The notes under the pieces are model-generated. The model saw only the letters and a list, made by a program, of their open reading frames with translations. It was not told where the DNA came from and made no database searches. DNA of 33,748 bases from a virus. This document shows positions 21,927 through 29,859 of the stretch, piece after piece; the stretch's first letter is position 1; every line of letters begins with the position of its first letter. A program made the position numbers and the translations under genes. Where the stretch lies: UHGV virus genome UHGV-0125592; one strand, given 5' to 3'.

Positions 21927-22295
21927 TCAATCATCCATGTCAAGTCGAATATCAAGCATAGCCAAACATCCGTCTATAAATCCTTCTGCCATCTGTATCT
22001 CGATGCGTATCAATTTCTCATCTTTTTTACGCGCTTTCGCAATCTTCCTCTTAGATATTCCGTATAGGTAGTGGGCAACAAGAAGTGAATGCTCATATGG
22101 TTTTCGGTTTTTCAATCGCGCCAGGCACCCTTCGATGATCAGCGCATCATCGTCAGTACAAGACGGTCGGGAGCTACCTATTTGCGGCAACAGCCCTTTA
22201 AATCCTGCAGCTATAGGAGAATAGTCCACGCCAGAACTATCACTGGCAGCCCACCCGCCCCATCTTTCGAGTAACATTTGAATATCACGCATCAC
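21927..22295 (-). CDS. Late-gene antiterminator Q (small Q family, QuuD-like)
   Basis: 122 aa; MMRDIQMLLERWGGWAA...IAAGFKGLLP...SRPSCTDDDALIIEGCLARL...AEGFIDGCLAMLDIRLDMDD matches the conserved pattern of the DLP12/phage-82-type small Q proteins. Confidence 0.75.
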   Translation of the reverse strand: MMRDIQMLLERWGGWAASDSSGVDYSPIAAGFKGLLPQIGSSRPSCTDDDALIIEGCLARLKNRKPYEHSLLVAHYLYGISKRKIAKARKKDEKLIRIEIQMAEGFIDGCLAMLDIRLDMDD

Positions 22296-27171: not shown

Positions 27172-27375
27172 TTACTGGTTAGCAGATACGCCTGTAACCT
27201 TGTGATACAGGGATGCGTCATACTTAAGTTTCCCATTAGTAATTCTCTCTATTACGAAGGCTTGCTTCTCAGGGATGACTTTTCCCCAACGACATACGGC
27301 AGGGTGTGAGATATTCAAAGCAACAGCGGTTTTAGAGATACCGCCAAAATGCTTTACGACTTCGGACTTATACAT
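27172..27375 (-). CDS. cro: Cro-like HTH regulator (YdaS/Cro family)
   Basis: 67 aa with HTH (GGISKTAVALNISHPAVCRWGK); divergent from cI across the operator region; GGAGG ribosome-binding site. Confidence 0.7.
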   Translation of the reverse strand: MYKSEVVKHFGGISKTAVALNISHPAVCRWGKVIPEKQAFVIERITNGKLKYDASLYHKVTGVSANQ

Positions 27376-27467: not shown

Positions 27468-28127
27468 ATGAAAACAGAGATGAAAGACCGCATCAGATCC
27501 AGACGAATCCAGCTGGATATAACCCAACTAGCACTGGCTAAAAAGCTTGGTGTAAGCCGTGTATCGGTTACAAAATGGGAAAACGGCACGACTAAGCCTG
27601 ATGGTGAGAACCTTCACCAGTTGGCTCAGGCTCTATCAACAACACCAGAGTGGATACTCTATGGAAGCGGTGATGAGGTCATTGACGACACGCGCGTCGT
27701 GCCTTTTTTGAAACCCCCTGTAGCTGTACCGATCATTTCGGCAGTTCAAGCCGGTTTATGGACGGAAAGCTATGCCTGCTCAAGACTTACAGACGTGATT
27801 TCCTGGACTCAAACAACTGCAAATGTATCGGATGAAGCGTTTGGGTTAGTAGTCCGCGGGGAGTCGATGACTAACCCGCAAGGACTTCCATCTATACCTG
27901 AAGGTTCTATTGTTATAGTCGAGCCCCATTATGGGCAGCTTGATGATCTATATGGGAAAATAGTTGTTGCTATTTTGGATGGGACTTCAGAAGCAACGGT
28001 TAAAAAATTAGTTTGGGATAGCCCCTACTCATACCTAATGCCACTAAATCCGTTATTTAAGCCAATCCAAATTGATGGCAACTGTCGCATTGTCGGAAAA
28101 GTTGTACAAATCACTCAAAACATCTAA
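27468..28127 (+). CDS. cI: CI-type prophage repressor (HTH plus S24 LexA-like autopeptidase domain)
   Basis: N-terminal XRE-type HTH (LDITQLALAKKLGVSRVSVTKWENG), C-terminal S24 domain with Ser (GESM) and Lys (TVKKL) dyad; start codon abuts an operator, suggesting leaderless translation as for lambda cI. Confidence 0.85.
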   Translation: MKTEMKDRIRSRRIQLDITQLALAKKLGVSRVSVTKWENGTTKPDGENLHQLAQALSTTPEWILYGSGDEVIDDTRVVPFLKPPVAVPIISAVQAGLWTESYACSRLTDVISWTQTTANVSDEAFGLVVRGESMTNPQGLPSIPEGSIVIVEPHYGQLDDLYGKIVVAILDGTSEATVKKLVWDSPYSYLMPLNPLFKPIQIDGNCRIVGKVVQITQNI

Positions 28128-28143
28128 TCCCTTCAAAATTAGG

Positions 28144-28168
28144 AGCCGAGCATAGCCTCGGCTTTTTT
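28144..28168 (+). terminator. Intrinsic terminator after cI
   Basis: AGCCGAG-CATAGC-CTCGGCT hairpin followed by TTTTTT, 17 nt after the cI stop. Confidence 0.6.
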
Positions 28169-28177
28169 ACACGTCCA

Positions 28178-28261
28178 AAGGTAACATAAAGTACATTACT
28201 CACTTGACCGCCAAGGTAACTAAAGGTACATTTAAATTATCAAACGTAACCATTGGTACGT
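28178..28261. promoter_or_regulatory. Left operator/promoter region (OL/PL) with three operator sites
   Basis: AAGGTAACATAAAGTACAT (28178-28196), AAGGTAACTAAAGGTACAT (28213-28231), ACGTAACCATTGGTACGT (28244-28261), same family as the OR sites; candidate PL TTGACC (28204-28209) and TACATT (28227-28232). Confidence 0.55.
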
Positions 28262-28359
28262 TTGGTGAAGATAACAAATGCCTTGTATCACTATTCTGGC
28301 GGCCCAGTGTTTTCCCTTGTGTCTGGTTACCGCCAGCCTTTTTTCAAGGCACAACATGA

Positions 28360-28419
28360 AAGCGCACTCCTTCAATTACCAGTTATGGGTGACAGGTGTG
28401 AAACAAGCGGAGTGCGCTT
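28360..28419 (+). other. Long inverted repeat (11-bp stem, about 38-nt loop) in the PL leader
   Basis: AAGCGCACTCC (28360-28370) pairs with GGAGTGCGCTT (28409-28419); a second hairpin CGGCGG-TTGCAG-CCGCC (28442-28457) lies just before the first PL gene. Confidence 0.4.
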
Positions 28420-28475
28420 CCAGTTGAGTATGGAGAAAGATCGGCGGTTGCAGCCGCCTTAACGAGGGTAAAACC

Positions 28476-28847
28476 ATGAGTAATGACCGCATGACCGTAG
28501 TGCCAGATTTTCTTGGCGAACTGGATGCCGGCGTGTTCATGAACAAAATCGCGGCAGCACTTAATACCACCGCGCTTGGTGTTCTAAACAACGGCAACAA
28601 AGGAAAAGTAGTCCTCACCTTTGATTTTGAGCGCATGGGTAATTCCGTTGAAGAGAAGCGCGTCAAGATCAAGCACAAGCTGAACTACAGCACCCCAACA
28701 CCGCGTGGTAAAGCCTCCGAGGAGGACACAACCGAAACCCCGATGTGGGTCAACAAAGGCGGGAAGCTCACCATCCTGCAGGAAGATCAGGGTCAGCTGT
28801 TCGGGATCACTGGCGCGGTGGATGGAAAGCTTAAAGCGGCTCAGTGA
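28476..28847 (+). CDS. Hypothetical protein, first gene of the PL operon
   Basis: 123-aa ORF with GAGGG ribosome-binding site; not Arg-rich, so not N-like. Confidence 0.5.
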   Translation: MSNDRMTVVPDFLGELDAGVFMNKIAAALNTTALGVLNNGNKGKVVLTFDFERMGNSVEEKRVKIKHKLNYSTPTPRGKASEEDTTETPMWVNKGGKLTILQEDQGQLFGITGAVDGKLKAAQ

Positions 28848-29731: not shown

Positions 29732-29859
29732 TTGCTCTGCATTAAATCCCCGGCGCCGCGGGGATTTATTGAAGCGTAATTCCACTAATTATCGCCAACC
29801 GGCGAGGGATTCGTGCAACCAAAATCTGCGCGGTGCAGCGCGCCAATATGGAGAAAACC

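Follow-up and report, generated by a model that had tools for sequence, protein, structure and literature searches.

A terminator-like hairpin and a putative RNase III processing hairpin in the early-left leader of an N-less lambdoid phage

The DNA analyzed in this study, hereafter the window, is the 33,748-nt virus genome UHGV-0125592, and our subject is its leader between the early-left promoter PL and the first early-left gene. The features on which the argument depends are listed below.

21927-22295, - strand: Q-like late antiterminator gene (phrog_79, E 3e-46)
27172-27375, - strand: cro; a CII/YmfL-like gene starts 22 nt beyond it
27468-28127, + strand: cI-like repressor gene, with the terminator hairpin 28143-28168 at its end
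28204-28232, + strand: PL promoter, TTGACC-17-TACATT, from a consensus scan
28242-28263, + strand: palindromic third operator AAACGTAACCATTGGTACGTTT, from the sequence; transcribed, and the first small hairpin of the MFE leader fold
28280-28350, + strand: HP1 module, from the terminator scan, the fold, and relatives, with an outer clamp of GCCUUG (28280-28285) and CAAGGC (28345-28350)
28350-28428, + strand: HP2, type A of the CACAAC…GUUGUG family, from the fold, the family model R2, and arm covariation
28429-28439, + strand: UAUGGAGAAAG, a conserved element on the 3′ side of the hairpin nearest to the first gene, from relatives and the MFE fold
28443-28458, + strand: HP3, a 6-bp GC hairpin GGCGGUUGCAGCCGCC, from sequence, fold, and conservation, 5 nt upstream of the Shine-Dalgarno sequence
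28464-28847, + strand: Shine-Dalgarno sequence GAGGGU (28464-28469) and yfdP-like gene (ATG at 28476), from the ORF list

The PL promoter is overlapped and flanked by operator-like repeats, GGTAAC..GTAC, which are also found at OR, and the dicBp promoter of the K-12 Qin prophage shares its layout (TTGACC-17-TAATCT). Transcription from PL probably starts at ~28239, and because the promoter lies at 28204-28232 the transcribed leader measures ~237 nt; the original prediction was right in placing a leader here, but its length of roughly 210 nt was too short. The small hairpin formed by the third operator is probably a by-product of operator symmetry. At the far end of the leader, the first PL gene encodes a yfdP-like protein of 123 aa that matches phrog_204 (function unknown); it is assigned to PF27127 (YfdP) in identical prophages, and its E. 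coli homologues are annotated as "YfdP family". The PL operon continues with yfdQ (DUF2303), an HD-domain gene, small ORFs, a methyltransferase gene, an excisionase gene, and an integrase gene. Between yfdQ and the next gene, at 29744-29770, the operon also contains a terminator-like element, the GC-rich hairpin AAATCCCCGGCGCCGCGGGGATTT followed by ATT. On the other side of the repressor, the CII/YmfL-like gene is followed by a DUF4222 ORF, a replication gene, dam, rusA, an antirepressor gene, and the gene for the Q-like antiterminator. The late genes are thus provided with protein antitermination through the Q-like protein, though no early system was found in the same phage.

At least four public assemblies (GCA_020730125.1, GCA_053552535.1, GCA_027908715.1, and GCA_032741435.1; our loci L148-L151) contain this immunity region and leader, with 1-3 substitutions in 353 nt. 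No gene is called in those assemblies in the 348-nt gap between cI and yfdP, and the substitutions among the four prophages are too few to inform. Searches with Rfam returned no family at threshold over the whole window and only chance-level matches around the leader, and a literature search on the hairpin sequence returned only unrelated primer matches. Self-cleaving ribozyme and Y-RNA-like identities were rejected because Rfam gave no such match, and what we take to be the motif order of the hammerhead core does not fit the leader. The cI 3′ end and its terminator (28071-28170) gave a sub-threshold Rfam match to AgrB (17.9 bits). A C0293-like small RNA, svsR, is located at the cI 3′ end in related SfV/e14-like prophages (PMC12803456), and a small RNA of this type was rejected as the identity of the leader because that position lies outside it.

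According to the original prediction, the leader is highly structured, with an 11-bp-stem hairpin enclosing a large loop and a GC hairpin just before the first ribosome-binding site, and all of this was recovered. The segment 28239-28480 folds at -87.1 kcal/mol compared with -66.3 ± 5.1 kcal/mol for shuffled sequences (z -4.06), its structures are conserved in relatives, and it holds three hairpins: HP1 (28296-28336), HP2 (28350-28428), and HP3 (28443-28458). HP2 is the predicted 11-bp-stem hairpin and HP3 is the predicted GC hairpin, lying 5 nt ahead of GAGGGU; HP1, a third and terminator-like hairpin, had not been mentioned. The energy of HP3 alone is unremarkable (z -1.75, with 14 of 200 shuffles equally good). 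HP3 is kept upstream of yfdP in relatives and partly upstream of rdgC, and one compensatory variant (GGCGA/UCGCC) was found, in locus L012. The element UAUGGAGAAAG also follows the last HP2-like hairpin in loci L003, L005-L008, L043, and L044. In the MFE leader fold it pairs with CUUUUUUCA, and by this modeling it can pair with the U-tract of HP1, which may lengthen the HP2 helix in read-through RNA.

HP1 has the form CUGGCGG-C-CCAG-loop15-CUGG-UUA-CCGCCAG, that is, a 7-bp GC stem, a 1-nt bulge, a 4-bp upper stem, a 15-nt loop (UGUUUUCCCUUGUGU), and a 3-nt bulge, and it is followed by CC and UUUUUU (28339-28344). The terminator scan flagged 28323-28336 followed by CCTTTTTTCA, which is the 3′ part of the full hairpin. 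HP1 folds at -26.8 kcal/mol (z -4.71) and is kept in nine relatives, with a compensatory U-A/G-C exchange in the lower stem. A GC-rich hairpin and a U-tract are both present, and HP1 is predicted to act as an intrinsic terminator. The 2 nt that separate the stem from the U-tract count against this step.

The 11-bp stem of HP2 is formed by AAGCGCACUCC (28360-28370) and GGAGUGCGCUU (28409-28419) around a 38-nt interior, and the stem continues down to CACAAC/GUUGAG. The structure therefore reads, from the bottom, as a base helix, a small internal loop, the 11-bp helix, and a small apical hairpin. HP2 alone folds at -32.2 kcal/mol (z -4.14), and none of 200 shuffles was as good. With the family model R2, HP2 reaches 91.8 bits on the + strand and 35.9 bits on the - strand, and it is the only copy that this model detects in the window.

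BLAST recovered pieces of the leader from several Klebsiella phages, from prophages of E. coli, and from the phages mEp390, Flotzy, and LLS. The window and all 10 annotated loci have the hairpins on the repressor strand, beyond the repressor gene, sometimes after an inserted gene, and ahead of the first early-left gene, which is yfdP, rdgC, or another gene. A query with an exact 15-mer of the HP2 3′ arm yielded at least 120 viral-contig loci, the 5′ partner accompanied at least 89 of the matches, and the distinct type-A hairpins in viral contigs number at least 59. A structure-guided scan placed type A as one branch of a broader family with at least 65 distinct arm pairs. Members of this family are 66-134 nt long and share the base helix CACAAC/GUUGUG, with a 5′ strand rich in purines and a 3′ strand rich in pyrimidines; the NGCA/UGCN core is conserved, and the apical domain varies. 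Type A is present in representative genomes of 12 species, mainly of Kosakonia, Enterobacter, Kluyvera, Raoultella, Citrobacter, and Scandinavium. Rfam gave no match for the HP2 family, and 16 related loci gave tRNA matches only; the family-level pattern appears not to have been described before.

The pairing of the two arms is maintained by covariation. Cognate arms pair at -20.7 kcal/mol compared with -11.5 kcal/mol for arms of other types, and only 1.3% of swaps reach the cognate mean. The N:N′ pair of the core is seen as A-U, C-G, and G-C, and a helix of ~20 bp with a small internal loop is retained, the window and Qin having the same fold pattern. One-sided changes in type A lead mostly to G·U pairs on the + strand, with the 5′ arm showing mainly C-to-U changes opposite G, and R2 prefers the + strand by ~55 bits. 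Folding energy used as a strand test did not discriminate (34 of 67), and the model-made alignment A3 was left out of the pair counts because it mixed both strands.

A start codon inside HP2 (28357) raises the proposal that a leader peptide (MKAHSFNYQLWVTGVKQAECASS) is translated there and controls the downstream structure. This ATG is present in 47 of 59 variants, and in the window AAGG stands 7 nt upstream of it. However, the encoded lengths range from 0 to more than 25 residues, the frames shift, only MKAHS is common and is encoded by the conserved stem, and other hairpin types have no start codon. We regard a leader peptide as scarcely credible and, given the variable lengths and shifting frames, have rejected it.

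The leaders of relatives are 0.3-1.6 kb long and consist of shuffled modules with no convincing ORFs, including HP1-type hairpins with U-tracts. They carry at least two HP2-type hairpins each, and four were counted in locus L044 by reading of the sequence. The leader of the window, with HP1, one HP2, and HP3, is a minimal version of this arrangement. In several relatives, HP2-type hairpins adjoin tRNA genes or tRNA-like elements. In L048 (7987-8063) and in L049, L083, L101, and L113, a tRNA-Arg(UCU) begins within the three terminal bases of a type-A HP2, so that RNase P, in cleaving at this tRNA, would cut the hairpin at its base. A 126-nt tRNA-like element (L044 1800-1925; L065 1116-1241; L047 4364-4488, - strand) scores 30-40 bits with the Rfam tRNA model and is not called by ARAGORN; it has normal D and T arms, an insertion of ~50 nt, and HP2-type hairpins on both sides, and the 5′ strand of its acceptor overlaps the GUUGUG of the preceding hairpin. 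A 134-nt HP2-type hairpin (L044 1928-2061; L065 1244-1377) carries two T-arm-like apical hairpins (GGTTCGATTCC), GTCTGG-TTCGATT-CCAGAC and GTCCG-TTCGATT-CGGAC. The repetition of these hairpins, their punctuation of tRNA genes, and their place after a terminator fit a processing signal and are hard to square with a put-like device.

Two further modules were observed in the leaders of relatives. The first, ACCACC(G/T)NGCCTGA(T/A)GTGG(T/A)NAAAAG(N)CAGGC, comprises two small hairpins and often lies directly before HP1 or HP2 (L003 2955-2990; L002 2445-2480; L043 7163-7190; L044 1428-1460); the window has no copy. The second, GGTAATGCGGCTCTGCGCACG…GGTGGAGGCACCACCGCCACAAC, follows many type-A hairpins (L044 2056-2175; L002 2629-2760; L135 2450-2600), and the Qin region between dicF and dicB resembles it by eye. 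Because this trailing module ends in CACAAC, HP2 could find a partner for its GUUGUG arm on either side, in the upstream or the downstream CACAAC.

The functional interpretation of HP2 is drawn from the dicF region of the Qin prophage (L135). A hairpin located ~125 nt upstream of dicF, CATAACGCGAAAGCGCA…TGCGCTTCCGGTTGTG, is matched by R2, which was built without Qin, at L135 2172-2261 on the + strand (38.7 bits, E 3.7e-8). Several of its pairs differ from type A on both sides and are thus compensatory. The Qin hairpin is a homologue of HP2 in both sequence and structure. Ragunathan et al., on the authority of Faubladier et al. (1990), attribute the 5′ end of the 190-nt form of DicF to RNase III and that of the 53-nt form to RNase E, and the RNase III sites that flank dicF in the dicBF operon are credited to Faubladier et al. 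(1990) in bioRxiv 10.1101/2023.04.14.536235 and PMC5069750. Because dicF ends at L135 2435, the 190-nt DicF described in these citing accounts would start near 2246, inside the paired 3′ arm (2239-2258). This coordinate derives from a gel size (190 nt) and from published numbering as counted here; a count of 813 nt from the inferred dicBp start, again on that numbering, leads to ~2250, also in the 3′ arm. By alignment with Qin, HP2 is a predicted RNase III substrate, with a 3′-arm cut probably near 28416/28417. The A·A mismatch in the base helix of the window copy (GUUGAG) counts against this processing. The 3′ end of the 72-nt DicF is also made by RNase III (PMC5069750), and it falls in a 21-bp helix that starts 4 nt past the DicF U-tract and ends just before dicB. 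The order of Qin, a terminator-ended hairpin, then an RNase III helix, then the first gene, is the order of HP1 and HP2 in the window.

The homology to a processed RNA also bears on the proposal that the inverted repeats are DNA elements, either a miniature transposable element or linkers at which phage modules recombine. Conserved CACAAC/GTTGTG ends, variable interiors, and the shuffling of modules among phages would suit such an element. However, only one or two places per E. coli genome have it, all copies of known context lie in an early-left leader in one orientation, and the flanks read showed no target duplications. Moreover, the one-sided changes lead to G·U pairs on the transcribed strand, and the Qin copy, by the accounts cited above, is processed as RNA. 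We consider a DNA element highly improbable.

The resemblance between HP1 and DicF must be stated with more caution. HP1 has the bracket pattern of DicF, namely, a 7-bp GC stem, a 1-nt bulge, a 4-5-bp stem, a U-rich loop, a 3-nt bulge, and a U-tract, and the loop motif UUUCCC is common to HP1 and some DicF-like modules. However, the Rfam DicF model (RF00039) gave no match at E ≤ 10 in either the 1001-nt or the 91-nt search, and model R3, built from DicF and 11 relatives, matched 28275-28347 at 11.2 bits (E 0.014) in the 501-nt search only; in a 91-kb search it returned nothing for HP1 at E ≤ 1. Because of these results, we describe the modeled resemblance as architectural and regard homology with DicF as inconclusive. 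Clear DicF-like modules, GCUGUGUGUAGUCUUGGCGGU…ACCGCCCUUUUU, occur in many relatives, and the HP1 of the window belongs to a second group, CUGGCGG…CCGCCAGCCUUUUU, which is conserved with a compensatory pair. Among the distinct HP1-like hairpins with a U-tract, 27 of 39 have an HP2-like hairpin within the next 16 nt.

The original prediction had also stated that no N homologue and no nut site are apparent, that the first PL gene is not Arg-rich, and that cro is followed directly by the CII-like gene, and these statements hold. Pfam and PHROGs scans of the ORFs of the PL and PR operons gave no N homologue, the yfdP-like product is not Arg-rich, and the 22 nt between cro and the CII-like gene leave no room for nutR or putR. 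Matches to boxA in the window numbered 8 against 9.3 expected, with none in the leader, and in related loci both ops (GGCGGTAG) and the lambda-type boxA (CGCTCTTA) were at or below chance. The prediction had further offered an RNA element like the put sites of phage HK022 as one identity of the leader. Guided by a cryo-EM paper (PMC9378689), we located putL and putR in the HK022 genome and built the model R1 from 7 put RNAs of HK022, HK639, CobraSix, S9-5, and phiEt88, which share the consensus GAACGGC…GUCGG…GGCG.GG.UCA.GG..GA…CAAU in two stem-loops that together span ~70 nt. R1 recovers all seven training sequences at 62-101 bits. With filters off and at E ≤ 10, its best match in the window was at most 8.6 bits and none fell within 28239-28480, and the leaders of 50 related loci gave no match. 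Because R1 finds all of the true put RNAs and nothing in the leader or in the 50 related loci, the leader is not a member of the put family.

The put RNAs act independently of protein factors and rely on the zinc-binding domain of the β′ subunit. A cis-acting RNA unrelated in sequence might nevertheless be put-like in function, HP2, alone or together with HP1, binding RNA polymerase, rendering it resistant to terminators, and replacing N. Consistent with this are the lack of N, nut, and boxA, the terminator-like hairpin after yfdQ in the PL operon, and the conserved paired nucleotides and apical motif, which suggest specific recognition; in several relatives, a type-A HP2 lies 10-45 nt past the early promoter, as does putL, and HP2 usually follows another hairpin in a two-hairpin layout. 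However, put sites stand one to each early operon, upstream of the terminators, whereas the window has a single HP2, with no copy in the PR operon or elsewhere, and this HP2 cannot protect against HP1 because it lies downstream of it. In addition, relatives carry two or more tandem copies, some of which flank tRNA genes, the leaders of some relatives begin with a different antitermination device (an exact rrn-type boxA), and the Qin homologue is a mapped cleavage site for which the accounts cited here report no antitermination. With the R1 searches also negative, the put-like proposal was not borne out, and we judge it improbable.

The rrn-type boxA is itself a feature of some relatives. An exact copy (GCTCTTTAACAATCTGGA) directly follows a hairpin (AAGCGCCCCGTAGGACGCTT) in 13 related loci, compared with 0.55 expected, including L043 (6385-6445), L044 (795-840), L065, L068, L071, L074, L082, L090, L099, L103, L108, and L115; the window has none. 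In L043 it lies ~100 nt downstream of the early-left promoter, and no N-like gene follows. This pattern suggests that the long untranslated leaders are protected by Nus factors in the manner of rRNA. A related proposal would make HP2 itself a nut-like loading site for an unrecognized elongation factor of phage or host, with its pyrimidine 3′ arm serving as boxA for NusB/NusE. In some members that arm, UGCUCUUU, equals the first 8 nt of the rrn boxA and precedes the GU-rich GUUGUGUGG. BoxA acts single-stranded with NusB/E, however, and the UGCUCUUU strand is base-paired in the hairpin; furthermore, the version in the window, UGCGCUUCC, is a poor boxA, and true boxA elements are separate in relatives. 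A nut-like role for HP2 is accordingly very unlikely.

According to another proposal, the HP2-family hairpins are stable functional RNAs, such as decoys, protein sponges, or tRNA-like effectors, whose stem binds a protein other than RNase III, the cleavage in Qin being incidental. The variable apical domains on a conserved stem, the two T-arm-like hairpins of the 134-nt variant, the arrays with tRNA and tRNA-like genes, and conservation beyond the needs of double-stranded RNA all argue for it. Against it, no nearby gene for a partner protein is consistent, the downstream genes vary (yfdP, rdgC, and others), and no Rfam family matches. We regard this proposal as unlikely. The invariance of CACAAC/GUUGUG and GCA/UGC, together with the recurrent type-A apical motif (UGGGKRA…GGU.UGUAAC), goes beyond the known needs of RNase III; therefore, some further recognition or function of HP2 is likely, and protein binding, a stable RNA, or an action on polymerase is conceivable. 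In the boldest form of this argument, the CACAAC…GUUGUG hairpins would be a new class of phage structured RNA, with a stem that binds protein or polymerase, interchangeable apical domains (some tRNA-like), and arrays at PL that replace N. If so, these RNAs would act on the transcription complex, as a second RNA antiterminator unrelated to put, or on host factors or defenses. We consider this class speculative and rather doubtful.

The structures observed are conserved and covary, HP2 is homologous to the Qin hairpin, and nothing in the leader matches put or nut; on these grounds we believe that the PL leader is best read as a terminator or small-RNA hairpin (HP1) followed by an RNase III processing hairpin (HP2), and this reading is somewhat favored. 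Transcription from PL would make HP1 first, and HP1 would act as a partial intrinsic terminator. Terminated transcripts would yield a leader RNA of ~105 nt with the fold of DicF, a candidate small RNA with the loop UUUUCCCUU. Polymerases that read through would make HP2, whose helix of ~20 bp would be cut by host RNase III, parting the leader RNA from the message for yfdP, yfdQ, and the following genes. The cut would set the 5′ end of this message ~60 nt upstream of the start codon and ahead of HP3, with a possible effect on yfdP. The alternatives of a terminator or a riboregulator, which the original prediction had offered beside put, thus both retain some force, the former for HP1 and the latter in the broad sense of a processing or small-RNA cassette. 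The hairpin at 29744-29770 counts against this reading, since it stands in a PL operon that has no N, put, or boxA, and so does the conservation of HP2 beyond the needs of RNase III.

These results remove the tempting annotation of "put-like antiterminator" and tie an anonymous prophage leader to a studied region of the Qin prophage. They also indicate that the hairpin cut by RNase III beside DicF is no peculiarity of Qin and belongs to a conserved, covarying family absent from Rfam. Hairpins of the HP2 type punctuate noncoding leaders of 0.25-1.6 kb in lambdoids of E. coli, Klebsiella, Enterobacter, Kosakonia, Kluyvera, Citrobacter, and Raoultella, and this yields concrete candidates for phage small RNAs and processing signals. 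Furthermore, the question is raised of how early-left operons are read through in N-less phages of this kind.

Four known systems offer a comparison. Similar to putL and putR of HK022, the leader is a structured RNA just past an early promoter of an N-less lambdoid phage. However, put consists of two irregular stem-loops of ~35 nt each whereas HP2 is one long regular helix, their conserved motifs differ, and put occurs at both PL and PR whereas HP2 is found on the PL side only, as a single copy in the window and in tandem copies in relatives. The N leader of phage lambda contains an RNase III-sensitive hairpin, the cleavage of which modulates translation of the first gene. It resembles the present case in having a large hairpin in a leader of ~225-240 nt between PL and the first ribosome-binding site, but lambda has nutL and N, the phage of the window has neither, and no sequence similarity was seen. 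Between the early genes of phage T7, RNase III sites form a set of repeated hairpins that resemble one another, contain internal loops, and punctuate a single long early transcript, as HP2-type hairpins do. The T7 sites part protein-coding genes, whereas the HP2-type hairpins part noncoding modules, tRNA or tRNA-like genes, and the first coding gene. In the Qin dicF region, DicF stands between the HP2-type hairpin, 125 nt upstream, and a long helix of another kind, whereas in the window HP2 directly follows HP1; three small genes precede the Qin cassette and none precede that of the window; and Qin has DicF itself, of which the HP1 of the window is not a demonstrable homologue. Nevertheless, both belong to lambdoid early-left operons, downstream of a repressor gene and its promoter, and both place a terminator-ended hairpin of the same architecture and a long helix just before the downstream gene. 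We therefore lean toward the view that the PL leader of the window is a compact form of a modular noncoding cassette of lambdoid early-left operons, of which the Qin dicF region is the studied example.
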